DNA of 64,000 bases from a virus (taxonomy: Duplodnaviria; Heunggongvirae; Uroviricota; Caudoviricetes): positions 44,776 to 108,775 of IMG/VR virus record IMGVR_UViG_3300034279_001376. One strand, given 5' to 3'. The notes below the pieces were generated by a model. That model made no database searches. It was not told the DNA's origin and saw only the letters and a list, made by a program, of their open reading frames with translations. Numbering within the stretch: position 1 is the stretch's first letter; each line of letters begins with the position of its first letter. The translations under genes and the position numbers were made by a program. Positions 9,151 to 45,673 of this stretch are shown in pieces.

Positions 9151-11832
9151 CTATTTGTTTACTACTGCTACTTTCAAATTATCTTTAGAAATTTTAAGTT
9201 TTGCAGCAATTTCTTCACGTTTTACTTGTAATTCCTCCCTTCTTAGAGATTCATTGGTGTCATTAGTAAGTCTGTCTGCTTTTAGTTTTTCCCTCATAGC
9301 ACCTCTTTGAGACTCAGCCTCTTTTGCTTGGTTTAAGACAGACATATAGTAATCTTTTTCTGCAAGATCTGCCTTTTTTAAGTTAAGTAATTCCTCAACT
9401 CCTGTACCTTGCCCAAATGAAGACTGGCCTACTACACGCATTTCTTGAATGTATTCATCTGATTCTATCTTGAGAAGTAGTTTTTCTTTTTCCCACGCTA
9501 ATTCAGAAGCCTTAATTCTCTCATCTGCTTCAATTTTTGCTTGTAATTGTCTTTGTTCGTTTTCTTGTTGCTTCTGGACTTCCGCTTGTTTTTTTACAGT
9601 CAAATCTTTAAGAGCAGAATATATGTCTGAAAGAGAATGAGTACTTAACATTTTAATCTTGTCTTCTAAATCAGCACCCATAGTATTGTCCCTACGTACC
9701 ATTTCTTTCATCTCTGCAATTAATAGTGCATCATCAAAACTTGAGGATGTGTAAACTCCTAACATGTAAAGAGGAAAATCCTCAGTAGTAGTCTGAAATA
9801 TTTGTCTTTCCCCCTCAGAGTTAAGATAAGAATCAGCAGTACTTCCTTCTTTGATTTTTAGATACTTGGTAATCTCTAGGAAAGTTTGCCAACCCTTTTC
9901 CATCATGGAATAATGGTCATCATACACCTCTTTGACTGCGTTTACAGTTCTTTGCACTCCTTGTGCTATTCCTGCTTCTGTTTCCTGAGGACTTATTTCT
10001 GAAAGGAATTGAGAAGTAATTCCTAAGACCGAATAGCACTCTTCTTTAATAGACATGGCCAATTGTACTTTTTGGGCAATTTCATCCATTCTACTCAAAT
10101 CCACTTTCTGACCAAACCCACCAGTGAGTTGACTTCCTCCTTGCATGTTAGAAGGAGAAGTGTCCACAGCACCAATACCTAAGTCACGGGCTGTCATTGC
10201 AAACTTTACAAGATTATTTTTGCCCCAAGAACCATCCATAGATTCAGAAGGAATAGCATTTTGGTTCATCACAAAGAATGGACCTATTTCAGTCTTTAGA
10301 ATTTGCATGATGCGATTCCACACAAAATTAAAAGCAATTTCCCATACTTCTGTTTTGTCCACAATCTGACTAGACTCTGAATACTTATTGGTAGTGGCTC
10401 CACCGTGTACAGGAATGTAAGATCCAAACCTTCCTATTTTTGGATCTGAGAGTTGAACTTTATATTTTTCGATGCTTAACCAAACATCATCACTGAGGTC
10501 AGGATTTGCATTCCGTGAGAAATTTAATTTCTGGACTCTGTGGAGTTCGTTAATATAAAATACTTCCACATGTTCACCTTCGAGAAGATATTCTGCTGTT
10601 TTTGGTTTACCCTTTAAATAAGTGGGCTTAAAGACTGGAAGGTATGTTTCATCCACTATCTTAGTAACTTCCTCTTCACCTACTCGGAAAGTGACTTTTT
10701 TCATAATACGTGGAATTTGCACGTACATATTCAATATCTCAACCAACCTTTCTCTGTATTCTTCTCCCCTGTGTCTGTGAGTAGTGTCTTCTTCTGTTCT
10801 AAACGCGAGATAATTTTGGATGTCTGCTTCTACTGGTTTCTTAGTCTCAAACTCAAAATTAGCAGCAGTCGTTGCTGTGAAGTTAGTACTGCCAAATCTC
10901 AAGTGTAATTTCTGAATGGTTTCTTCATTTAATTTATCTCCGAACCTTTGAATAATAGTTTCAGGAGCCTCATACTCGTACCACATAAACATGTAAGAAT
11001 GACTTACATCATCGTTGTGAGGACTTTTTAAATAGGCAGCATTTTCTGGTCTGATTACTTCTGGTCTTACTTCATCTTCTTTAAGATTAAGATGTAGGAA
11101 AGGTCTGTCATTAATAATCCGGTTTCTAAAGAGTTGTTTTTCTATGTCTGGCATATTAAACTTTCTTTTGGCGTTTTCCATGACATGATTGGCCCACTGT
11201 TCAATAGTTAATCTAAATTCTGTGTTGTAATACTTCTGAATTTTTGGGAGTTGTTGGAATATTTTAATTTGTTCCTCATAGACATCTGGTTGACTTTCAG
11301 GTGTAATCCCTTGGGCTTCTAGGTCTTGGTTAAAAAACTGCATAGCACTAGAAACTAGAAGGTTTCTAATGTCTCCATTCTTGCGGTCAAGTATGTCATT
11401 CTGGGCCTCTCTGTTTACAGCGAGTACTGAGTAACCTACTTTAGTCTTAGAGAGAAAAGAAGTTAACACATTGACTATTTTAGAGGTTAAAGGGAAAAAC
11501 TCTATTTCTTCCAATTCATCCTCTACGTTGTCCACTAAAGACAACTCCTCTTTTAAAGAAGTGTCCTTTAAATAATCTTTAAGGTCAAGAGTACCATTGG
11601 CTCTTTGTTGATTTTTTATAATTTTGTTACGATTTGCAGCAATGGTTCTTCTTCCTTTCTGCTCGTATATTAATACGTTCTGTTTTAATAACCTAAAATC
11701 ATTTTCTGTTTTATCTTTCTCAGTCAGAACCAACTTGTTTTCGTTGAACCTGTGTAATACGTGAGAAAAATCAGAACCTTTTTTGTTAGGTATTTTTATT
11801 TTTGGCCCTGTCTTTGACCCTAATTTGTCCAT
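9151..11832 (-). CDS. putative portal protein
   Basis: 893 aa ORF with ATG start, immediately downstream of the large terminase on the same strand. The long charged coiled-coil C-terminus is typical of large portals. Call rests on position and size. Confidence 0.55.
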   Translation of the reverse strand: MDKLGSKTGPKIKIPNKKGSDFSHVLHRFNENKLVLTEKDKTENDFRLLKQNVLIYEQKGRRTIAANRNKIIKNQQRANGTLDLKDYLKDTSLKEELSLVDNVEDELEEIEFFPLTSKIVNVLTSFLSKTKVGYSVLAVNREAQNDILDRKNGDIRNLLVSSAMQFFNQDLEAQGITPESQPDVYEEQIKIFQQLPKIQKYYNTEFRLTIEQWANHVMENAKRKFNMPDIEKQLFRNRIINDRPFLHLNLKEDEVRPEVIRPENAAYLKSPHNDDVSHSYMFMWYEYEAPETIIQRFGDKLNEETIQKLHLRFGSTNFTATTAANFEFETKKPVEADIQNYLAFRTEEDTTHRHRGEEYRERLVEILNMYVQIPRIMKKVTFRVGEEEVTKIVDETYLPVFKPTYLKGKPKTAEYLLEGEHVEVFYINELHRVQKLNFSRNANPDLSDDVWLSIEKYKVQLSDPKIGRFGSYIPVHGGATTNKYSESSQIVDKTEVWEIAFNFVWNRIMQILKTEIGPFFVMNQNAIPSESMDGSWGKNNLVKFAMTARDLGIGAVDTSPSNMQGGSQLTGGFGQKVDLSRMDEIAQKVQLAMSIKEECYSVLGITSQFLSEISPQETEAGIAQGVQRTVNAVKEVYDDHYSMMEKGWQTFLEITKYLKIKEGSTADSYLNSEGERQIFQTTTEDFPLYMLGVYTSSSFDDALLIAEMKEMVRRDNTMGADLEDKIKMLSTHSLSDIYSALKDLTVKKQAEVQKQQENEQRQLQAKIEADERIKASELAWEKEKLLLKIESDEYIQEMRVVGQSSFGQGTGVEELLNLKKADLAEKDYYMSVLNQAKEAESQRGAMREKLKADRLTNDTNESLRREELQVKREEIAAKLKISKDNLKVAVVNK

Positions 11833-11924: not shown

Positions 11925-14900
11925 TTATTTTCTTTTCTTAAAAGGAGAACCCATTTTCATTACTACTTTTTGCTCTCTTTTTACTCCGTTTTCTCTTACT
12001 TGTCTTTGCTCTTTTACTACTAGATTTCGATTGGTGTTTGATCTGGCTGCAATTAAGGCAAATGTAAATGCAACTAATCGGTCTGTGTTTAACTTAGGGG
12101 TGTATTTGAGCATCTCCTCTAGGAGCATAACATCTCTTAGTCTTGTAACTCCATACACGGGAGTTTTTTCCCCGTCTTTCATTATGTTAAGGATAACTTC
12201 ATCAACATAAGCAACTGCAAAATCTAAAGCCTTTTTTTTAAATTCTCCCTCCATCCTAATTCCTATTTCGTTTACTATGGTAGAATTGGGCATCCATTCG
12301 TTTAGAAGGTATATTTCTTTTCTTTTCATAAACATGTGCCCTAAGTCTTTTCCTATGGCCCATTCGTGAAAACCTGTTACGTTTGATTCTACTGCTATTC
12401 GAGCATTGTAATATTTGCAAAGGTTCATGCACGTTTCGTAAGTTTCTTCCCAAGTTGGATACCTACCTGTGTATCTGGCCACTGGAAAATCACTTACCAT
12501 TTGCCCATTAGCATTTACGTGAGCAGCCTTAAATATAACCACTGACATCAAAGACTTAGAAGTAGTGGTGTTGGTTTGTCTGATAGGGTCAATTCCTGCG
12601 TAATATAAACCCCAAGGTGGATTATCTATTGGTAGTTCATCTACTTCTACTACTCCTCTATTATCCTTAGTGGGGTCAACCTTTAGAGTTGAGATAGGTT
12701 TGTTGTACGAGATTTTGTGGGTGATTTTACTGTCAGTAACTTCCAGTTCTACTGTAAGAGGTTTATAGGTTTGACGAAGTAAAGTCTGGTGTTCTTTTAT
12801 GATTCGAGTGGGGAAAATATTATCCTCCCGGATAGCAAAAGCATCTTGAAGATTAAAAGGATGCTGAGATTTCCAAAGAATGTAATTGTCTTTTTCTCTC
12901 CTTTTTTCGTCTTCTAAGTTAAGATAGTACTTGGCTAATTCTATGTCTGAATTTCCATCCTTATCGTAACACTTAATCTGTTTACCATCAACACTTGCTA
13001 TATAATTCCAAAAGTCTGGGAAAAAGAAACAAATCTCTTCATCTGATTCTACCTCTGAGAATATATCTTTGATCCCTAAGAACCCATAACCAGAAGGATT
13101 GAAAGCAATGTTTTCTAATGGCCCACAATCTTTTAATTCACCCACGGCTCCTGATACTGTAATGTGCCCAGTTTTAACACCTCCCATTTTTGTGGCTGCT
13201 TCTGCAAACTCCAACACTTTGTCTAGGTTTGGAGCAATGCCTGCTTCTTCGTGAAAAAGATCAGTTATGTGACCACCTACTGCTTTTGCAGGGTTCTTTT
13301 TAGTGGTGGCTGCCACTAAACGAGATTTTAATCCTACCCATTTTTTCTTTGTGTTAACTGTACCTTCAATTACACTTCTTTTCTGTTCCCATTCTAGTCC
13401 TGCATCTGGTTCAAATGATCTGTACCAAGGAGTATGCTCATTTAGAAAGTTACGGTAGTTAACAGCAAATTTCCAAGAACCATTAGTGTTTACAAAATCT
13501 TCTTCATATCCTATGACTTTACAAACACTCTGCTTAACAAACCATAGTTTTCTCATTAACTTTGACATTAGTTTCAGTGTGTTATGAGTAAGTACATAGT
13601 CTTTAGTAATGTAAGTATGGCTAGGATGGTCAACTTCAATACAAGTGGACTCTTCTTTTCCAAGTTTTACTACATTAATAATACTGTTTTTTGTACGTCT
13701 TTCTCTGTCTAGTATTTGTCTGTATTTCTTACGCCTTAATCTAAACAACCTTATTTTATTTCCAATACGTACCCTCCAAAATATGTGGTCAGTTTCTTTT
13801 GCTGGTGGAAATTCACAACTATGAACTGGAATCCCCAAAGACCTGCATAATTCTACCACATCTGCTTGAAGTCTTTCGGATGTAGTCGTAAGTTGAATAT
13901 CATAACCTTGTTCAGAAATATACCCGTCTGTATCCATAAGCCCCTGTAATAAGGCTATCCGGTTTTCTACACTAGATTTTAAATAAACCTCTGGAATGAA
14001 TTTGTTGTAGCAAGTCGTACCTGTTAAACCTAACTCCTTTAGTTCTCTTAACAAAGGATTTACACCATATTGAGCGTTTACATATTTAGAATCTAAAGAT
14101 GTAAATCTTTTTGCATACATAATAGTGGCCCGGTAATGATTTTCTGCTTGTTCTCTTTCACCTGTATGGTAATCTTCTCCAAGGTCTTCAAGGACTAAAT
14201 CAAATACTTCTTGGTCTGCTGAGGTCAGCCTACATTGAGATTTGGTGAAAGAACCATCACCTAGTAAAGCACCCAAAGCATACGCAGGGATTGGCACAGT
14301 ATTCTCAGGATAAATAATGGGATCAATTTCCTCCACTCCATACCTATAACCTTTATACTCTTTTTTCTCCCCACTTTTTAAAGTTGCTGTTGCTTTATAA
14401 GTTATGCCTTTTTCTAACATTTGCTTCAAAGACAAAACTTTTAAAGTATTCCTTTCTCGCACCTCCCAGAGATGATTAATACCACATCTTACTTTTCTTT
14501 TGTCCAAAAATTCTATTTCGTAAACATCTTTTACTCCTTGTGGATAAACACCTATTACATTGGTTAACTTGCCATCTTTAGAATAAACTTTGTCTCCTAC
14601 TTTTAAATCTCCAATAGGTCTAAAACCATGTTCTGTGAGTACAGGTTCTGAATTAGGTTGTTCAAAGCCTTTCTGGCGGGCTTTGCAGACAGCAGAGTTT
14701 AGATCAGATAATCTAGCAATTTCGTCATACAAATAAAAATGGTAATCTCCATCCCATAATTCTGCAAAATCCTCCCTACCTTTTAATTTATCTACAATAG
14801 GAGTGTAGTTAAGATACCAATAAAAATCTCCGGGTAAATAAAACTCGTTAATGATTACACCTTGACCTATTTTTTTCTTCTCAAAAGCAAAATGTTCTTT

Positions 14901-15113
14901 GTATTGTTCTGAGTCTTCCGAGAAGTCACAATACCTTCCTGTCGTTTGGAATTTAGTGGCAGGTTCAACCCATAGATAAGTGTCATACAAACCATATTTA
15001 CCCGGTTCTTTGAACTGAGATTTTACGTATGCAAGAAACTCCTTGTCATTTTCGTAAATAGTGTATGACCAAACTCCATTTTTAAGAGTAGGTATTCGCT
15101 TTGTTGTAAACAT
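11925..15113 (-). CDS. terL: terminase large subunit (T4 gp17-like) interrupted by an intein
   Basis: 1062 aa. N-terminal ATPase region with ...CKARQKG P-loop remnant. C-terminal nuclease domain with a YAGIDPIRQ RNaseH-like acidic motif. The internal ~360 aa has hallmarks of a homing-endonuclease intein (see intein feature). Confidence 0.8.
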   Translation of the reverse strand: MFTTKRIPTLKNGVWSYTIYENDKEFLAYVKSQFKEPGKYGLYDTYLWVEPATKFQTTGRYCDFSEDSEQYKEHFAFEKKKIGQGVIINEFYLPGDFYWYLNYTPIVDKLKGREDFAELWDGDYHFYLYDEIARLSDLNSAVCKARQKGFEQPNSEPVLTEHGFRPIGDLKVGDKVYSKDGKLTNVIGVYPQGVKDVYEIEFLDKRKVRCGINHLWEVRERNTLKVLSLKQMLEKGITYKATATLKSGEKKEYKGYRYGVEEIDPIIYPENTVPIPAYALGALLGDGSFTKSQCRLTSADQEVFDLVLEDLGEDYHTGEREQAENHYRATIMYAKRFTSLDSKYVNAQYGVNPLLRELKELGLTGTTCYNKFIPEVYLKSSVENRIALLQGLMDTDGYISEQGYDIQLTTTSERLQADVVELCRSLGIPVHSCEFPPAKETDHIFWRVRIGNKIRLFRLRRKKYRQILDRERRTKNSIINVVKLGKEESTCIEVDHPSHTYITKDYVLTHNTLKLMSKLMRKLWFVKQSVCKVIGYEEDFVNTNGSWKFAVNYRNFLNEHTPWYRSFEPDAGLEWEQKRSVIEGTVNTKKKWVGLKSRLVAATTKKNPAKAVGGHITDLFHEEAGIAPNLDKVLEFAEAATKMGGVKTGHITVSGAVGELKDCGPLENIAFNPSGYGFLGIKDIFSEVESDEEICFFFPDFWNYIASVDGKQIKCYDKDGNSDIELAKYYLNLEDEKRREKDNYILWKSQHPFNLQDAFAIREDNIFPTRIIKEHQTLLRQTYKPLTVELEVTDSKITHKISYNKPISTLKVDPTKDNRGVVEVDELPIDNPPWGLYYAGIDPIRQTNTTTSKSLMSVVIFKAAHVNANGQMVSDFPVARYTGRYPTWEETYETCMNLCKYYNARIAVESNVTGFHEWAIGKDLGHMFMKRKEIYLLNEWMPNSTIVNEIGIRMEGEFKKKALDFAVAYVDEVILNIMKDGEKTPVYGVTRLRDVMLLEEMLKYTPKLNTDRLVAFTFALIAARSNTNRNLVVKEQRQVRENGVKREQKVVMKMGSPFKKRK
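13581..14651 (-). mobile_element. intein with LAGLIDADG homing endonuclease inside the terminase ATPase domain (approximate boundaries)
   Basis: Hint-like N-block (EPVLTEHGFRPIGDLKVGDKVYSKDG). Two LAGLIDADG motifs (LGALLGDGSF and LQGLMDTDGYI). C-terminal block ...YVLTHN followed by Thr (+1 extein residue). The N-terminal boundary is uncertain; Ser155 is a candidate first residue. Confidence 0.6.
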
Positions 15114-15661
15114 TAAAAATCAGAGTTTGTATCATCCTCATCAATTGCTATTTTGGATGCACCTTTTCGTTTAATAACTTCTTGCCTGAATGCAGCATCT
15201 ACTGCATTAAAGTTGTTGATAGTGGTAGAGGCGTTGTTTTGAATTTGCTGGATATTTGCCAAGTTTCCATCTTTTCCTCCCACTACTTGAGCAGTTCTCA
15301 GATAATCACCCACATTATCCATTGCTATTTTTAAGGATTGAAGGTATCTTTGCGTGGGTGTTTCACACAATTCCTTCATTTTTTCTGCTGCTTCTATGAG
15401 AGGAATATCAAAAGAAGGGTTGTAATCACCCGGACAGTCTTTCATAACTCTTTCCTTCCTAAAATCTTCGTGAAGCAAAAGATGGGGGCTTTCCGGGTCA
15501 TACATAAAATGAAGATAAGTAAATGCTGATATGGCATTGTTCATACCGTTTACCTCGTCCTTATTTACATAGTAATCGTATGCCTTTCTGAAAGCAGGAA
15601 CTACTAATATAACCTCGTTTACTATGACTCTATTTTCTTTTATTGTTAGTACTTTTTGCAT
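15113..15661 (-). CDS. putative terminase small subunit (positional call) or hypothetical protein
   Basis: 182 aa ORF with ATG start. It ends in an ATGA overlap with the terL start, the classic terS position. No diagnostic motif. Confidence 0.35.
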   Translation of the reverse strand: MQKVLTIKENRVIVNEVILVVPAFRKAYDYYVNKDEVNGMNNAISAFTYLHFMYDPESPHLLLHEDFRKERVMKDCPGDYNPSFDIPLIEAAEKMKELCETPTQRYLQSLKIAMDNVGDYLRTAQVVGGKDGNLANIQQIQNNASTTINNFNAVDAAFRQEVIKRKGASKIAIDEDDTNSDF

Positions 15662-16391
15662 TTTTAAAATGATTTAGTAATGCTATGACTTCTTTCTTTA
15701 GATAATTAACTGGATATGGAACTGACTCAAATGCTTTATTTTCTGAGAATAAAATATGATGAATGGTTAGTCCGTTTGGTTTTAACTTATACCCTGCTTG
15801 TTCTAAAATGTAAGCGTATATGCTTAATTGGAGAGTGTAATGAGTCCCGTTACAATCACCTAAATGTGAAATAGGTGGATACATTTTTTTCTCACTTCGA
15901 GTTTTAGAGTCGGGGTTAAAAACCATAAACCCGCTAAACTTCAATTCTTTATTAGTCTTGAAATCCTCAAGTATAAATGTTTTGTCCTCAAATATCTCTA
16001 CGTAATCTGCTGTACCAGTTAGATCGAACTCAGGCAAGTAAACCATAAGTTCTGGATACACACCCGGTTTTAGATTGGTAATATCGAATGCTTCTTTTAA
16101 GCCATTCCTTTCTTCGTGTTTGAATACTTTTCTTTTTTTGTCCTTGTAGTATTCTTCTTCTCGAAAAGCATGATACGCTTTCCCCCTAACTATTGACTTA
16201 TCATTTTCCTCTTTCCATTCTTTGAGAATTAACTCAGGGGTGGTTTTTCTTTTCTCAGCCACTTTAACAGACATTTTTTCTGCGTCAAAGTGCTCGTGGT
16301 ATTGAGCAAGGAGCCTTGAGACAGAAGTCAATTCTTTCTCAGGGGCATCTCTCCAAAAGTATCTGTGTTCTTCTTCGTTAAATAATAACAT
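15630..16391 (-). CDS. PD-(D/E)xK RecB/Cas4-like nuclease
   Basis: 253 aa. Motif GTADYVEIF...ILEDFKTN fits D...(D/E)xK, and a downstream TLQLSIYAY matches the RecB-family QxxxY motif. Confidence 0.5.
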   Translation of the reverse strand: MLLFNEEEHRYFWRDAPEKELTSVSRLLAQYHEHFDAEKMSVKVAEKRKTTPELILKEWKEENDKSIVRGKAYHAFREEEYYKDKKRKVFKHEERNGLKEAFDITNLKPGVYPELMVYLPEFDLTGTADYVEIFEDKTFILEDFKTNKELKFSGFMVFNPDSKTRSEKKMYPPISHLGDCNGTHYTLQLSIYAYILEQAGYKLKPNGLTIHHILFSENKAFESVPYPVNYLKKEVIALLNHFKNAKSTNNKRK

Positions 16392-16681
16392 TATATAATC
16401 TTGCCTTTAATGATAAAATTGTGTGTAATTCCCCCTACTTTAATCCAAGCAGATTCATCCACCACACCAAATTGATTTGTTTTATCTATGGTAACTATTA
16501 CGTTAAAAGCCTCATCTTTTTCTACTATCCTAGGAAATGAAACAGTGGTGCAACTGCAACTAACCCCTGAATCTTCTATGGTTAAAATGTCTCCGAAGTT
16601 CCTTCCTGCAAAGAAGAATGTACTCGGTGATGTGCTGCTTATAATCTGATTGTGAAGTGTGTTTGTGTTAAATCTTAGCAT
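16391..16681 (-). CDS. hypothetical protein
   Basis: 96 aa ORF with ATG start, in the minus-strand accessory block. Confidence 0.45.
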   Translation of the reverse strand: MLRFNTNTLHNQIISSTSPSTFFFAGRNFGDILTIEDSGVSCSCTTVSFPRIVEKDEAFNVIVTIDKTNQFGVVDESAWIKVGGITHNFIIKGKII

Positions 16682-17061
16682 GGTGGGTTGTCTTTAAATA
16701 GGTTAGTAAACAAATCAGTGTCTGTCAAAGAAACCCCCCATGTCAATCTTGGGGAATTTTTTAGAACATTAAATCCCATAGGATCAGTAGCATAAAGCCA
16801 ATCATTTGCTGAAAGGTTTTCTGCGGAAACAGATTCAATAAAGTTTTTGTGGATTTCTACTTTATTTTCACCAGCGTCATTTAAGTAAAACTCGTACAAT
16901 TTACCATTAATAAGTCCTATGGTTAGTTTTTCTGCCCCATCTCGCCATATTCTTCTAAAAGCAAAATAACCATTTTTTAGCCTTTGGTAATTAAAAGTAG
17001 TTTCTATTGGTTCTTGTATGTTCATAAGTGGGTTTTGATGAACTGGATATTGGTGATACAT
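16675..17061 (-). CDS. DUF2829 / Tad2-like protein, copy 1
   Basis: Motif QRLKNGYFAFRRIW...LSANDWLYATDP matches the remembered DUF2829 signature (A..LK.GK...R..W ... llAdDWe). Start taken at the ATG at 17059-17061 (M28 of the table ORF) to avoid overlapping copy 2. Confidence 0.5.
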   Translation of the reverse strand: MYHQYPVHQNPLMNIQEPIETTFNYQRLKNGYFAFRRIWRDGAEKLTIGLINGKLYEFYLNDAGENKVEIHKNFIESVSAENLSANDWLYATDPMGFNVLKNSPRLTWGVSLTDTDLFTNLFKDNPPC

Positions 17062-17062
17062 A

Positions 17063-17431
17063 TTATTTTGTGTAAGGTTTAAAAAACATTGGTTGAATAG
17101 GCGGGTTTTGTTTACCACTATAATAATGAGAACTAGTAGCACAAATAACTGGTGGTAGATTTTCTTTTACTTTTGTATAACCATAAGGGTCTAAAAAATA
17201 CTCCCAGTCATCCGCTAATAAATCTTCTGTTAATGGGTTCCACACTCTACTAGTAGAAGTTGTAGCAGTATTTTCTGTTTCTAATTCGTGCAATAAAAAA
17301 GTAGAATTTCTTATCCCCAAGAAAAATGGATCCCAAGATTTTCTCTTTGCAAATTGCCCGTTTTTTAATCTTTGAATATCTAATAACATATTATTTGTTT
17401 TTAAGTTTGAATTTTTTCCATTCACTCTCAT
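17063..17431 (-). CDS. DUF2829 / Tad2-like protein, copy 2 (tandem paralog)
   Basis: Motif IQRLKNGQFAKRKSW...LLADDWEYFLDP is clearly paralogous to copy 1. The start may instead be the internal ATG at 17387-17389 (MLLDIQ...). Confidence 0.5.
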   Translation of the reverse strand: MRVNGKNSNLKTNNMLLDIQRLKNGQFAKRKSWDPFFLGIRNSTFLLHELETENTATTSTSRVWNPLTEDLLADDWEYFLDPYGYTKVKENLPPVICATSSHYYSGKQNPPIQPMFFKPYTK

Positions 17432-17669
17432 TTAACATTTCAGGATAACAATTTCCTTCACATGCTTTGCTTGAGTAAAAAAGTTCTGGTGTTTTGCATT
17501 TGCAAATTTTGCAGTGTCCATTGAGGCATTCTGGGGATATTTCTTTGACTAGGATTTCTCTGAGTACAACTTGTTCTCGAATGTAACCCGGAAGTCCTTT
17601 AAATCTGTATCTAAAGTGCCCTTGAAAAAATGCGTAAATATTTTTAAGTGTTATTTGATTTAGTTTCAT
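17391..17669 (-). CDS. small Cys-rich zinc-ribbon-like protein
   Basis: 92 aa with ATG start. CLNGHCKICKCKTPELFYSSKACEGNC gives at least 6 Cys in CxxC-like spacing. Confidence 0.5.
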   Translation of the reverse strand: MKLNQITLKNIYAFFQGHFRYRFKGLPGYIREQVVLREILVKEISPECLNGHCKICKCKTPELFYSSKACEGNCYPEMLNESEWKKFKLKNK

Positions 17670-18511: not shown

Positions 18512-18862
18512 CTAGTGTTTAACCGTATATGTGACATATCTATTTATGATTTTTTTGAAAATAAAGTTGTTCAAATAAGCAAATGCTTCATCATTCTCTT
18601 GAGAAATAGGTACTCCCACTGCGTGAAGAATGTAAGAAGTAGCATGAATACATTCGTGGTTTAAGTTTGAGAGAAAATTTAAATCAGGAACCAACATGTA
18701 AACAGTATGATTATCCTCATCGTAGTATGTGACTGCACAAGCATTTTTATAGTCTATTGATTTTTTTGTGACTTTTTTAAATACTTCCGCACATTTCTCA
18801 ATAGTGTCTTCCGTGATGAAGACTATTGCAGCATTGTATATTTCTACTTTAAATCTTAGCAT
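18512..18862 (-). CDS. small HExxH zinc-metallopeptidase-like protein
   Basis: 116 aa. NHECIHATSYILH contains HExxH, with a downstream acidic ENDEAFAY segment as a candidate third ligand (SprT/ImmA-like mini-gluzincin architecture). Confidence 0.45.
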   Translation of the reverse strand: MLRFKVEIYNAAIVFITEDTIEKCAEVFKKVTKKSIDYKNACAVTYYDEDNHTVYMLVPDLNFLSNLNHECIHATSYILHAVGVPISQENDEAFAYLNNFIFKKIINRYVTYTVKH

Positions 18863-19358
18863 TTAGGATAATTTTTACACATTCATGCACTTTTTTTGCT
18901 GTACTTTCCGCAAATCCGAATTTGTGAATATTACTTTGTACCCAAGTTTCAAAAGGATTTCCGTATGATTTTCCTGCTCCTATCCAATCAGCCAGCATTT
19001 CGATGATGTAAATGTCGGGCATTTCTAAAGGGCTTGTTATTCCTGATTTATCTACCATGAACCAGTGTTCAGGATGATGAGGATTATTCATGTAATGGTG
19101 ATGCCACGCTAGATCAAAAGCATTAATTACTTCTGGGGTTCTAGGTACTCCTTCTTCTCCAAAGAAATAATCAGCATAACCCTTAAATTCTGCCTTAGAG
19201 TATTTAGACTTGTCATGCTTGTCTAAATTGGACATGAATTTAATTGTGGAGTATTCTAAAGGTAAGTCCAGTTCCATTAAAACCTGACCTGCTTCCTGAA
19301 CAAATCTTATATGACTGTTCACTGTGTTTAAGTAAAGTTCTTCTTTTAAATTTTTCAT
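18849..19358 (-). CDS. His-rich putative metal-dependent hydrolase (HD-like)
   Basis: The table ORF starts with TTG. The first ATG (MKNLKEEL...) is at complement 19356-19358. Motifs LDKHDKSKY and AWHHHYMNNPHHPEHW suggest a metal-binding hydrolase. Confidence 0.45.
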   Translation of the reverse strand: MKNLKEELYLNTVNSHIRFVQEAGQVLMELDLPLEYSTIKFMSNLDKHDKSKYSKAEFKGYADYFFGEEGVPRTPEVINAFDLAWHHHYMNNPHHPEHWFMVDKSGITSPLEMPDIYIIEMLADWIGAGKSYGNPFETWVQSNIHKFGFAESTAKKVHECVKIILNAKI

Positions 19359-23414: not shown

Positions 23415-23615
23415 ATTCTTTAAACCATTTAAATTAGAAAAGGTTTAATTATTTATAAAGAGTTCAGAATAAAATTTGTTTCAATCATCTAGCATTTTGT
23501 CATTTGCCTCAAAAAAAGAGTAATAAAACAAAATAAAATATTGGGTTTATTAGCAAAGACAGAATTTATTTGCTTTAGATTATGCAGTCTCAAAGACAAA
23601 TCGTATTTTTGCATT

Positions 23616-24104
23616 ATGAAAATTCAAGATAGAATCAAACTGCAAGGGCTTCAAAACCCTTTTATGACCAATACAACCATTCAATGTAAAACCTATAAGG
23701 TGATTAACAAAATGGGGAATTTGGCAGACATAACCGAAGGTATTTTTGTGGGGGATGTGTCCGAGATTAAGCAAAGTGTGATCGTGGATTCAGAAGAACA
23801 CTCAAAAATATTCACAAAAGCAGGTTATAGGCTTCATGTAAGTGCCTTATCACCTCAAGGAAGGCTCTTATTTTTATGGCTGTTGTACGAAATTGATTAT
23901 GCGGAAGATTTCCTAGAACTGAATAAAAGACGGTTTATAGCGGAATGCACGTCGAATTACAAGCATTTATCAGCAGGGATCAAATCTCTTATGGATGCTT
24001 CTATAATTATACCTACAACAGTTGAGAACGTGTATTGGATAAACCCTATTTTCTTCTTTAAAGGAGATAGAGTTAAGAAATACCCAAACAATATTACGAC
24101 ATAG
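23616..24104 (+). CDS. hypothetical protein (possible regulator)
   Basis: The table ORF 23541-24104 initiates at TTG. The first ATG (MKIQDRIKLQGL...) is at 23616. Confidence 0.5.
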   Translation: MKIQDRIKLQGLQNPFMTNTTIQCKTYKVINKMGNLADITEGIFVGDVSEIKQSVIVDSEEHSKIFTKAGYRLHVSALSPQGRLLFLWLLYEIDYAEDFLELNKRRFIAECTSNYKHLSAGIKSLMDASIIIPTTVENVYWINPIFFFKGDRVKKYPNNITT

Positions 24105-30951: not shown

Positions 30952-31146
30952 AACAGAGACGAAGTTTGTCTTATACTTCGGGTATAAGCAAACACCAGTG
31001 AGGTGCAAACACCCGTTTATCAGTTTCTACCCAATAGGTTGTAAGTGAAACTGTACTAGCCCCGTTCATATAGCAGACAATATGCTCCTCTTCTAAGGGA
31101 GTCACAGGGGTGCAAATCCTCTACGGGGTACTAAATTATTAAAATT

Positions 31147-32877: not shown

Positions 32878-32947
32878 AGGGAGTTAGCCTTAAAGTAAAG
32901 GCCAGTATTTGCTATACGGTATGCTGGTTCAAATCCAGTACTCTCTC
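32878..32947 (+). tRNA. tRNA-like element (possible degenerate tRNA, anticodon-loop reading UGC)
   Basis: Acceptor agggagt/actctct (7 bp including one G-U). U8. D-stem gcct/aggc. T-arm gctgg-TTCAAAT-ccagt. The anticodon stem has an A-G mismatch, the variable loop is only 3 nt and position 37 is a pyrimidine, so it is non-canonical. Confidence 0.25.
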
Positions 32948-33017
32948 CCGAAACGGGTTGGTAACCTAGGACTGCTGTAAAGTGGGACTAGGATTTTTAA
33001 CATTTAACATTTAAAAA

Positions 33018-43447: not shown

Positions 43448-45673
43448 ATGATAAAATACATAGGTAAAACAGAAGAAAACTTTGAGCACGCAAGTCCACA
43501 GGAATGTCTGGATTGGTGCTTAAAACAGCAAGTGTTAGTCTTAGACACAGAGACTACAAGAAAGTACCCTAAAGGTACTTATGATGAATCAGTGTACAGG
43601 TCTGGATTGGATCCTAAATTGAGCAATATTATTATGTTGCAAATAGGAAACCAAGAAAGGAAATACATTATTGACGCACGAATAATAGATGTGAGGTTTT
43701 TAAAACCAGTGTTAGAAGGGCCTATACTAAAGATTCTTCATAATGCAAAATTTGATGCCAAGCATCTTTTAGAATTAGATCTTACGCTCTATAATGTATG
43801 GGACACCATGATTATAGAACGGGTCTTACACAACGGATGGAATTATTCTTACTCCTTGGAGGCAACAGCAAAAAGATACGGTTTAATTCAATCTAATATC
43901 TTGCCTGAATTGTTTGATATAGAAGAAGAGGAAGAAGAGGAATTAGATTTTTTAGACGGTAAAGAAGAAAAGGTTTTTGTTGACAAGTCAATAAGAACTC
44001 AATTTGTAGAGTGGGGTGATAAGCCTTTCACAGAGAAGCAGATTTTGTATGGTGCATCTGATTTGGATTTACCACTTAAAATCTACAATCGACAGAAACA
44101 AGGAACAACAGTAAATGGTGAATTGTATCTTCCTCTAAAGGGATTTGCAGTGGAAAACGAAACTGTTTTAGCCTTGGCTCAAGTGGAAAGGGAAGGAATT
44201 AAAGTTGACATAGAAGGATGGTTGGCACTTGAAAAAATAAACCTTGAGAAATATAGGGAGAAAAAGAAAATACTTGACAAGTACATTATCAGTTATTTTC
44301 CGAATTATACGTCAGGAGTTGATCTCTTCTCTAACGAGGAAACATGCGGGATAGATTGGCAGTCTCCGAATCAAGTTATTAAACTATTCAGAGGGCTGGA
44401 TATTTGCCCCAAAGAGAAGTCTAAGCAAACTGGGAAGATGGATTGGACTGTGGGAGCCAAAGCACTGTTTAAACTCCTTACAAACGAGAATAAGGAGAAA
44501 TTCCAAAACTCTGAAACTATTGAGTTTAAGGATAAGAATGATACTCAGGCTTTAATTCTTAATTTCCTAGTCTTCAAGAAGTACCAGATGTTAACTACTA
44601 CATTTGGCTCCAAATATCTTAGGTGGGTTCACCCTATCACTGGAAAAATTCACACTAATTTCCGTCAGTATATGAATACTGGCAGAATGAGCAGTAGTTC
44701 GCCCAATTTACAGAACGTGCCAGCAGGAAAAGAATGGAGAAAACTTTTCATCAGTGAAGAAAATGAAGACATGGTTGCAGTGGACTTTGAGAGTCAGGAA
44801 ATAAGATACCTTTCTGTTTTGGCCAATCTTCAAAACATGAAAGACTTTTTTATTAAAGGTAATGAAATCTTTGGTGCGGATTTCCATGCGTTCAGTGCCA
44901 CAAATATGATGAGAGTTGTAAAGAATGATCCTACTCTTTTAATCACTAAGAAAACTCACCCCAAAGAAAGGACCATAAGCAAAACTTTGACTTTTGGTAT
45001 TAACTATGGAAAAGGTTCTTTTTCAGTGTCTCAGGAACTAGGAATCGAAGAATCAGAAGCCATAAAATTTATAGACGGATTTTTGGATGGTTTTCCCGGC
45101 TTGAGGGAAAACTTTGCCAAGAGAAAAAAAGCAGCAACAGATAACGGATGGATAGAAATAAGCCCTTACACTAAAAAAAGATATTTCTTTCCTGAATTTA
45201 AAGAGATGAAAGACAGTGAGACTTTAGCAAGGTCTTATTATACGGAGGAACACAATGAGAAATCCAAGAAGATTAATGTTGCTCTCAAAGGTAATTTAAC
45301 CAAAGAACAAAAAGCAGATTTATTGGAGCAAAAACAGGCTTTAAAGGATGAATTGTACGCAAAACACCCAGAGTTAGGCCCTTTGTGGAAACGAGTAATG
45401 ACTTTAAAAGGCAAACTAGAGAGAAGGGCATTAAACTTTGGAATACAAGGAGGTTGTTCAGAAATGACCAAAATTGCTTTGTGTCTTATGGTTAGAGCCA
45501 AAATTAGAGTTATATTGATTATTCACGACGAATTTCTTGCAGTATGTAAGGAACCAGAGAGTGAATATGTAGGAACAAAAATCAAAGAATTAATGGTCAG
45601 TGCAGGTGCTCGATACAGTAATGATGTAAAATTTACTGGTGATGCTGCTACTGGTAAATACTGGATACACTAA
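43448..45673 (+). CDS. polA: family A DNA polymerase (Pol I-like) with 3'-5' exonuclease domain
   Basis: Exo I VLVLDTETT, Exo II LHNAKFDAKHL, Exo III YGASDLD. Pol motif A VAVDFESQEIRYL, motif B RTISKTLTFGINYG, motif C IIHDEFL. Confidence 0.9.
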   Translation: MIKYIGKTEENFEHASPQECLDWCLKQQVLVLDTETTRKYPKGTYDESVYRSGLDPKLSNIIMLQIGNQERKYIIDARIIDVRFLKPVLEGPILKILHNAKFDAKHLLELDLTLYNVWDTMIIERVLHNGWNYSYSLEATAKRYGLIQSNILPELFDIEEEEEEELDFLDGKEEKVFVDKSIRTQFVEWGDKPFTEKQILYGASDLDLPLKIYNRQKQGTTVNGELYLPLKGFAVENETVLALAQVEREGIKVDIEGWLALEKINLEKYREKKKILDKYIISYFPNYTSGVDLFSNEETCGIDWQSPNQVIKLFRGLDICPKEKSKQTGKMDWTVGAKALFKLLTNENKEKFQNSETIEFKDKNDTQALILNFLVFKKYQMLTTTFGSKYLRWVHPITGKIHTNFRQYMNTGRMSSSSPNLQNVPAGKEWRKLFISEENEDMVAVDFESQEIRYLSVLANLQNMKDFFIKGNEIFGADFHAFSATNMMRVVKNDPTLLITKKTHPKERTISKTLTFGINYGKGSFSVSQELGIEESEAIKFIDGFLDGFPGLRENFAKRKKAATDNGWIEISPYTKKRYFFPEFKEMKDSETLARSYYTEEHNEKSKKINVALKGNLTKEQKADLLEQKQALKDELYAKHPELGPLWKRVMTLKGKLERRALNFGIQGGCSEMTKIALCLMVRAKIRVILIIHDEFLAVCKEPESEYVGTKIKELMVSAGARYSNDVKFTGDAATGKYWIH

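Follow-up and report, generated by a model that had tools for sequence, protein, structure and literature searches.

A divergent Tad2-like gene and its pocket-less paralog abut in a variable slot of crAss-like phages

Tad2 proteins are among the most widespread counter-defence sponges of phages, with a list of ligands that is still lengthening, and validated Tad2s from Bacteroidota phages include HgmTad2, SptTad2 and ModTad2. The DNA studied here, a stretch of 64,000 nucleotides that we call the window (positions 44,776 to 108,775 of the IMG/VR record IMGVR_UViG_3300034279_001376), contains two small neighbouring genes, A and B, in which the first-pass annotation saw a tandem pair of DUF2829/Tad2-like genes and a candidate anti-Thoeris module. 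Do these genes belong to the Tad2 family and, if so, could their products act as sponges for a signalling nucleotide? The pair represents a Tad2 lineage of crAss-like phages that has a minimal core and an extended tail, one of the two paralogs having lost the pocket; it cannot be called a clear-cut anti-Thoeris module, and its tandem arrangement is not unique.

Two abutting genes and their surroundings

The window comes from a crAss-like phage: its 558-aa protein at 6133-7809 matches PF23898 (Crass_capsid). By tblastn, an 893-aa protein (9151-11832) distantly resembles portal-annotated genes of Cellulophaga phages phi17:2 and phi4:1 and of phage csAssE-Sib, and a LAGLIDADG intein lies inside the large terminase (11925-15113). 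The GC content is about 34%, and the region has no nucleotide match among 50,697 phage records searched with blastn. Genes A and B are located about 2 kb inside a leftward gene string that begins near 19.4 kb and reads, in order, small unknown genes, a 253-aa protein, a 182-aa protein, TerL, portal and capsid. A promoter and terminator scan was uninformative: sigma-70 matches were fewer than in shuffled sequences, and Bacteroidota promoters are outside the models of the scan.

Two adjacent small open reading frames are indeed present on the minus strand in the interval 16675-17431; the longest-ORF bounds first given to them overlap, but the real genes abut. Gene A (17063..17389, minus strand, ATG at 17389, stop at 17063) encodes a divergent Tad2-like (PF11195) protein of 108 aa, and gene B (16675..17061, minus strand, ATG at 17061, stop at 16675), a diverged paralog of A, 128 aa long, in which the canonical pocket residues of Tad2 are missing. 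The strings that the first-pass annotation quotes are found where expected, QRLKNGQFAKRKSW...LLADDWEYFLDP in A and QRLKNGYFAFRRIW...LSANDWLYATDP in B. The ATG of A lies one base past the stop of an upstream Cys-rich gene of 92 aa, and the ATG of B one base past the stop of A. Both of these minus-strand junctions read directly as TAATATG, the one at 17387-17393 (AAATAATATG) joining the Cys-rich gene to A and the one at 17059..17065 joining A to B. At its other end, B overlaps the start of the next gene by the sequence ATGCTAA (16675..16681, minus strand); this gene encodes a 96-aa DUF1573-like protein, with a PF07610 match at 27.5 bits. A tblastn search found no third A/B-like copy in the window. 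An alternative start of B at its internal Met13 (MNIQE...) was rejected: the orthologs in loci L001-L004 have Lys at that site, and a MYHQ or MYNQ start at a TAA(T/C)ATG junction is common to all copies.

The two proteins were announced as clear paralogs, and they are. BLASTP aligns A and B over 106 columns with 30% identity (E 9e-10), and the group of A orthologs aligned with the group of B orthologs by hhalign yields a probability of 94% (E 1.4e-7): judged from the sequences, the similarity is far above chance.

Family membership, fold and pocket residues

Protein A matches PF11195 (Tad2-like, formerly DUF2829) with 29.3 bits and an E-value of 1.3e-6. The match spans residues 5-63 of A and positions 7-71 of the 73 in the model; the curated gathering threshold of the family is 25 bits. 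With scores of 26.9, 24.9 and 22.4 bits for orthologs of A, the A clade straddles this threshold, two of its four orthologs being just under the cut-off. Since SPO1 Tad2 reaches 85.8 bits on the same model, A stands at the edge of the family. The proposed DUF2829 membership thus holds for A in a Pfam search but not for B, which has no PF11195 match, nor do its orthologs, even at E<=10 or E<=1.

Comparisons of profiles go further. Aligned by hhalign with 35 PF11195 proteins, the A clade obtains 96.9% (E 2e-10), and the B clade, against the same 35-protein alignment alone, 49.9% (E 1.6e-4). When the target combines the A clade with the family, including SPO1 Tad2, ModTad2 and HgmTad2, the B clade reaches 96.5% (E 7.3e-10): as far as the alignments tell, the tie of B to the Tad2 family is visible through profiles only, and via A. 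Against the PDB, the sole matches of the A-clade profile are the Tad2 entries 8v3e and 9eib, and they are weak (E about 1.7); the B-clade profile has just one chance match there, to a nucleotidase (E 1.2), and phmmer searches of PDB sequences with A and B return no Tad2.

Both proteins are rare. Word-indexed searches among 5.8 billion proteins yield only four A-type and three B-type clusters, and an exhaustive HMM search through 1.84 billion representatives yielded, at E<=0.001, the clade itself and two further matches, dismissed as false positives, which Pfam identifies as a beta-propeller lactonase and a PKD-repeat protein. Scans of IMG/VR and a JGI metagenome scan found no relatives of A or B, a genome scan found distant Firmicutes PF11195 genes and nothing closer, an exact-sequence look-up has neither protein on record, and NCBIfam has no family for A, B or SPO1 Tad2. 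The label “transcriptional regulator” of PHROG 643 was rejected, as no experimental basis was found for it; the label is also borne by StB20-like gp47, of a Staphylococcus phage, and phiCM3 gp45, of a Bacillus phage, which are strong PF11195-family members with relatives that NCBI names Tad2 family.

An AlphaFold2 model of A, built from an alignment of 43 sequences, has a pLDDT of about 85 at residues 1-70 and below 50 at residues 78-108, a tail predicted to be disordered. Its elements are helix a1 (5-9), strands at 13-16, 23-27, 30-39 and 42-49, a helix at 54-57 and a strand at 62-65. The model thereby gives A the Tad2 fold, that is, an N-terminal helix, a five-stranded antiparallel sheet, and helix a3 ahead of strand b5. 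Together with the alignment to SPO1 Tad2, it delimits a Tad2-fold core at residues 1-65 (17195..17389, minus strand), with elements a1, b1, b2, b3, b4, a3, b5 and residues W19, W50, P52, D56 and W62. In B, a Tad2-like core is predicted at residues 19-91 (16789..17007, minus strand), with the order of secondary-structure elements of A and a longer N-terminal helix. Foldseek searches of the PDB with the models of A and B retrieved no Tad2.

The two cores are followed by C-terminal extensions, of about 43 aa in A (residues 66-108; 17066..17194, minus strand; delimited by alignments and low pLDDT) and about 37 aa in B, which are absent from the validated Tad2s. Both extensions contain the motif Y-x-x-D-P-x-G-[YF], with DPYG in A; the extension of A is Pro-rich and variable, and has an NPPVT repeat in L006.

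What remains of the ligand pocket can be read by comparison with the solved structures, using the sequence of SPO1 Tad2 (gp34.65) in NC_011421 and those of ModTad2 and HgmTad2 taken from PDB alignments. In SPO1 Tad2, gcADPR is contacted by W25, N26, W73, T78 and D79, and S76, D67 and H71 hold water molecules (bioRxiv 10.1101/2023.05.01.538930); in HgmTad2, the contacts are W21/N22/G23 and S90/T92/D93 (PMC10680739). Between strands b2 and b3, SPO1 Tad2 has an insertion of 24 residues, and HgmTad2 one of 41 (PMC10680739). This insertion provides the a2 dimer contact and, when long, a second pocket for cyclic dinucleotides or cUMP (PMC10680739 among sources); the 41-residue domain of HgmTad2 binds cGG and cGAMP (PMC10680739). 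The motifs R-x-G-W-N-G-K and W-x-[PA]-S-x-[TS]-D-[VIM]-L-A-x-D-W are common to the three solved Tad2 types.

The corresponding motifs of A are R-K-S-W19-D-P-F and W50-N-P-L-T-E-D56-L-L-A-D-D-W62. The alignment pairs W19, W50, D56 and W62 of A with W25, W73, D79 and W85 of SPO1 Tad2; W19, W50 and D56 are unchanged throughout the A clade, and among the A clade and 22 family members R16, W50, D56, D61 and W62 are invariant, P52 and A59 nearly so. The aromatic clamp and acidic residue formed in SPO1 Tad2 by W25, W73 and D79 are therefore kept in A. The Asn-Gly and Ser/Thr contacts are absent: A reads W-D-P (W-V-P or W-D-S in orthologs), with L53 at the position of S76 and E55 at that of T78. Because it is without the diphosphate-binding Asn-Gly, canonical gcADPR binding by A is not to be assumed.

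In B, the motifs become R-R-I-W39-R-D-G-A and E76-S-V-S-A-E-N82-L-S-A-N-D-W88. Only W39 is left of the clamp: E76, V78 and N82 occupy the positions of W73, P75 and D79 of SPO1 Tad2, S79 and E81 those of S76 and T78, and the first Trp is followed by R-D-G-A. The fold-core residues R36, A85, D87 and W88 are retained. On this alignment B appears to be without exactly the three pocket residues, with its fold core kept. The first-pass annotation had relied on an “AdDW” signature. This is a fold-core motif (SPO1 W85) rather than the ligand-contacting W25, W73 and D79, of which A keeps all three equivalents and B only that of W25.

SPO1 Tad2 (8SME/8SMF/8SMG), the founding Thoeris anti-defence 2 sponge, is like A a short phage PF11195 protein with the same order of elements, and its residues R22, W25, W73, P75, D79 and W85 have equivalents in A. 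Nevertheless, identity is only about 24-29%, and the PF11195 scores are 86 bits against 29 for A. Beyond the substitutions of Asp-Pro for Asn-Gly, L53 for S76 and E55 for T78, A differs by a shorter a1, by the added tail of 43 aa, and by a b2-b3 connection that in the model is a turn of 2 residues, with neither the 24-residue insertion nor its helix a2. B is further removed, as the equivalents of W73, P75 and D79 are also missing.

A variable slot under selection

In related metagenomic contigs the flanks of the pair are retained and the content of the slot varies: A-B, B-A, or A alone. The order Cys-rich gene, A, B, DUF1573-like gene of the window is also that of L005, where a TGG->TGA change truncates B by its last 21 aa. 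In loci L001-L004, as in each of the 24 contigs read for P0007, the order is Cys-rich gene, B, A, DUF1573-like gene; L006 has A between the two flanking genes, and no B. Every junction in these loci is TAA(T/C)ATG, and B appears, from the junction sequences, to have been relocated as an exact ORF, ATGTATCA to AACCNACCAT.

Between related phages, protein identity is 60-70% for A and 65-87% for B, and mostly 85-96% for the neighbouring genes. In the alignments of the ortholog groups, identity is 59-72% among A proteins and 63-87% among B proteins; since A and B share only 30%, a separate duplication in each lineage is rejected. The ratio dN/dS, computed with the Nei-Gojobori method, is 0.19-0.32 for A when the saturated pair L005-L006 is left out (dS 4.2, ratio 0.07), and 0.24-0.27 for B at dS of about 0.9, against 0.02-0.10 in five neighbouring genes at comparable dS. 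Both genes are under purifying selection, yet they are evolving about 3-6 times faster than their neighbours; from these ratios and identities, we conclude that A and B are functional, and change several-fold faster than what surrounds them. Helix a3, strand b5 and the DPxG stretch are nearly invariant within each paralog, with residues that differ between A and B, which is the pattern expected after functional divergence. A and B are ancient duplicates, predicted to be co-transcribed, with the Tad2 fold in A and a predicted Tad2-like core in B; they occupy an accessory slot of variable content that immediately precedes the packaging genes.

There is always the possibility that B is a degenerating copy that does nothing by itself. 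Its pocket Trp, Pro and Asp are gone, it has no Pfam match, L005 cuts its last 21 aa and L006 does without it. However, B has the low dN/dS just given, and a 23-residue stretch (SAENLSANDWLYATDPMGFNVLK) is identical between orthologs that are only 63% identical overall. At least 24 contigs of one lineage and 14 of another carry its ORF undamaged, and the L005 truncation takes only a tail that is disordered in the model. Decay is thus a very improbable account of B.

Candidate functions of the pair

With homology, the fold of A, residue states, selection and synteny established, proposals on function must borrow from the family. Type I Thoeris is inhibited by most of the Tad2 homologs assayed experimentally (bioRxiv 10.1101/2024.01.03.573942), and a later screen of 18 homologs turned up at least one inhibitor for each of CBASS, Pycsar and Thoeris types I, II and IV (PMC12393519). 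Known ligands of the family are 3'cADPR, His-ADPR, N7-cADPR, cGG/cGAMP and cUMP (PMC10680739, PMC12393519 among sources). By analogy, oligomerisation, ligand binding and counter-defence would be expected of the pair as well.

The explanation that we tentatively prefer, without granting it quite an even chance, is that A may be a Tad2-like sponge for an immune nucleotide, with a non-canonical mode or ligand, and that B may have a different ligand or partner. Most likely, oligomers of A would capture a signalling nucleotide of host immunity in a pocket between subunits, with W19, W50 and D56 as its clamp; no second pocket, of the kind that accepts cyclic dinucleotides or cUMP, would be expected. 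Since A has neither the Asn-Gly clamp, nor the Ser/Thr of a3, nor the insertion domain, its ligand or mode is probably not that of canonical 3'cADPR binding. Its oligomer may also differ, since the dimer of SPO1 Tad2 is held together through helix a2 and the insertion, both absent from A. As for B, the replacement of its pocket Trp, Pro and Asp would prevent canonical binding, and since it is still constrained, it would most likely be a partner that has acquired a new function, on another ligand or target. Several observations count against this explanation, among them the low PF11195 score of A, the absence of Tad2 from the Foldseek matches, the lack of relatives outside the clade in the exhaustive HMM search, and the use of PF11195 in other contexts such as the lipase fusions described below. 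An Asp beside the diphosphate would be unfavourable, and the A clade has Asp or Val after the first Trp; moreover, judging from the gene order, A and B head what looks like a structural and packaging transcription unit, a position that is not obviously early.

ModTad2, from a prophage of Myroides odoratus (8V3E/9EIB), is the only PDB sequence-profile match of the A clade, and it comes from a Bacteroidota mobile element. It is a sponge for His-ADPR (type II Thoeris) and for cUMP/cCMP. Unlike A and B, it carries both motifs in canonical form, as REGWNGKG and WTPSVSD, together with an insertion region, and since family members with canonical motifs already differ in ligand, nothing on the ligands of A and B is drawn from ModTad2. 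The likeness of HgmTad2/AcrIIA7, of a Bacteroides phage (8KBI-8KBM, 8WJC), lies in its gut Bacteroidota phage origin: A is without the equivalents of N22/G23, S90, T92 and the insertion, and B without nearly the entire set of contacts.

It may also be that A and B are not sponges at all, but Acr-like or otherwise protein-binding inhibitors, regulators, or proteins with a role linked to packaging or structure. The family scores are at the fringe, the Asn-Gly, Ser and Thr contacts and the insertion domain are missing, and the pair lies directly upstream of the genes for the 253-aa protein, the 182-aa protein and TerL, in one direction of transcription. Family members bear other labels, such as AcrIIA7 (HgmTad2), “MW1434 family type I TA system toxin” and “transcriptional regulator”, and Clostridia MAGs (L012, L013) contain tandem fusions of a GDSL lipase with PF11195, membrane-anchored. 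These fusions share with A-B the PF11195 domain and the tandem paralogs; unlike A and B, which are small stand-alone phage proteins, they are bacterial, measure 330-380 aa and combine a hydrophobic N-terminal segment with an esterase domain, and they imply that the use of PF11195 is not restricted to phage sponges. Nevertheless, W50, P52 and D56, which A keeps, are ligand-pocket residues that are invariant or nearly so in the family, and fast evolution with presence and absence fits an accessory gene in an arms race rather than a core morphogenesis gene. No experimental basis was found for the “regulator” and “toxin” labels. We consider a non-sponge role somewhat unlikely.

The tandem arrangement, which was announced as unusual, deserves a closer look. 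A search with HgmTad2 yields 391 places in 380 phage records, so that most phages have one detectable copy. The arrangement is not unique, however: Bacillus phages vB_BtS_BMBtp3 and phi4J1 have abutting PF11195 pairs, as yet uncharacterised. A search of a limited collection of literature found no paper discussing tandem Tad2 genes. The downstream copy of these pairs is canonical (REGWNGK...GWLASQTDMLANDW), and the upstream copy has RSIWGGYW, a non-canonical loop past the first Trp, and Ala at the W73 position, in parallel with B. The resemblance to A-B has its limits, as one copy of the Bacillus pairs is fully canonical and neither copy is in the A-B pair; the Bacillus copies are also only 80-87 aa long, have no C-terminal extension and are readily matched by the family HMM.

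In another reading, A and B would co-assemble as a hetero-oligomeric sponge, its asymmetric A:B interface pocket tuned to another signal. Tad2 pockets lie between two protomers of a homotetramer, and A could contribute one aromatic clamp and B new residues. The two genes abut whenever both are present, in either order, with TAATATG stop-start coupling, and both proteins carry the clade-specific Y..DPxG C-terminal extension. B keeps the residues of the fold core but not those of the pocket, and a3, b5 and DPxG are near-invariant in each paralog with paralog-specific residues. The Bacillus phages likewise pair a canonical copy with one that has no W73 equivalent. On the other hand, L006 has A without B, which implies that A is not dependent on B, and all known sponges are described as homo-oligomers in a 2025 preprint (PMC12265669). 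We judge co-assembly quite unlikely, and it is highly doubtful that an A-B heteromer would use its asymmetric pocket for a signal beyond the reach of homomeric Tad2. If this were true, the heteromer and the unrelated Bacillus-phage pairs would represent a general, undescribed way to diversify sponge specificity.

Whatever the function of the pair, it extends the family to a very divergent minimal core in crAss-like phages, with neither insertion domain nor Asn-Gly clamp, and it gives an example of a paralog in which the fold appears to be retained and the pocket rewritten. Together with the Bacillus-phage pairs, it hints that duplication of a sponge gene followed by remodelling of the pocket in one copy may be a recurrent route to new specificities or to heteromers. 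If neither A nor B is a sponge, the pair would set a limit on the annotation of PF11195 matches as anti-Thoeris proteins. Should either protein bind a new signal, it would offer a handle for finding that signal, and the defence system that produces it, in Bacteroidota.

Order and integrity of the paired genes

The two abutting Tad2-like paralogs, gene A (17063-17389, minus strand) and gene B (16675-17061, minus strand), do not keep the same arrangement in related phages. A comparison of the window (16675-17393) with the metagenomic contigs L001 (5620-6335), L005 (5995-6650) and L006 (1210-1545) reveals that their order is swapped between lineages, A-B versus B-A, and that one lineage has A alone. 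At all the junctions of these four loci, we find the sequence TAA(T/C)ATG; where B comes after A, the tail of A is shorter by 3-4 amino acids, and the stop codon of B overlaps the ATG of the next gene. It seems that B changed its place as an exact open reading frame.

The B gene of L005 (6323-6700) has a TGA codon in place of TGG, and its product loses the last 21 amino acids. Since the DNA downstream of this TGA is still colinear with the window, the C-terminal tail of B seems to be either dispensable or in decay.

Genes surrounding the pair

Directly upstream of A lies a conserved gene (17391-17669, minus strand) for a Cys-rich protein of 92 amino acids, CLNGHCKICKCK...C..C, which has no match in Pfam and is 86-96% identical to its counterparts in the relatives. 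At all the loci compared, its translation is coupled to that of A or B. Between the pair and the large terminase, a conserved protein of 253 amino acids (15630-16391, minus strand), also without a Pfam match, contains a D...E-x-K-like stretch, TADYVEIFEDKTFILEDFKTNK, reminiscent of PD-(D/E)XK nucleases.

The window has a single DUF5662 gene (18849-19358, minus strand); related phages have two tandem paralogs, of 171 and 167 amino acids (L001: 3273-4281), each of which shares about 45% identity with the counterparts of the other, and they also have a GIY-YIG gene nearby. This is the second instance, after A and B, of tandem paralogs that vary in copy number within the same 3-kb stretch.

The large terminase itself (11925-15113, minus strand, 1062 amino acids) is interrupted by an intein, which has a LAGLIDADG homing endonuclease (PF14528, PF05204). 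The terminase of L005 has the same intein-bearing form, at 1063 amino acids, and those of L001-L004 and L006 are intein-less, at 701. The rightward half of the window encodes, on the plus strand, a RepL-like protein (23541-24104; PF05732, 23.9 bits), a tRNA-Arg(TCT) (31059-31131) and a tRNA-Ala(TGC) (32878-32949).

PF11195 in other phages and in bacteria

Abutting PF11195/DUF2829 genes are also found in two cultured Bacillus phages, vB_BtS_BMBtp3 (L023: 759-1261) and phi4J1 (L022: 1259-1764). In both, the canonical pocket motifs of Tad2 are present in the downstream gene of the pair. In the upstream gene, Ala occupies the W73 position, and WGGYW stands where WNGK would be expected. This pairing is a parallel to that of A and B, and seems not to have been described in the literature searched.

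Database names of PF11195 relatives (P0017, P0054, L007: 236-469 and L008: 245-460) disagree: "Thoeris anti-defense Tad2 family protein", "MW1434 family type I TA system toxin", "transcriptional regulator" (also the label of PHROG 643) and "AcrIIA7". Most of these conflicting labels appear to be without experimental backing.

Two Clostridia/Oscillospiraceae metagenome-assembled genomes contain tandem genes (L012: 3071-5343 and L013: 3176-5301) for proteins of about 330-380 amino acids, in each of which a hydrophobic segment at the N-terminus is followed by a GDSL-like lipase/acylhydrolase domain and, at the C-terminus, by the Tad2-like PF11195 domain (45-67 bits). This is a bacterial setting of the domain that does not look like that of a sponge.
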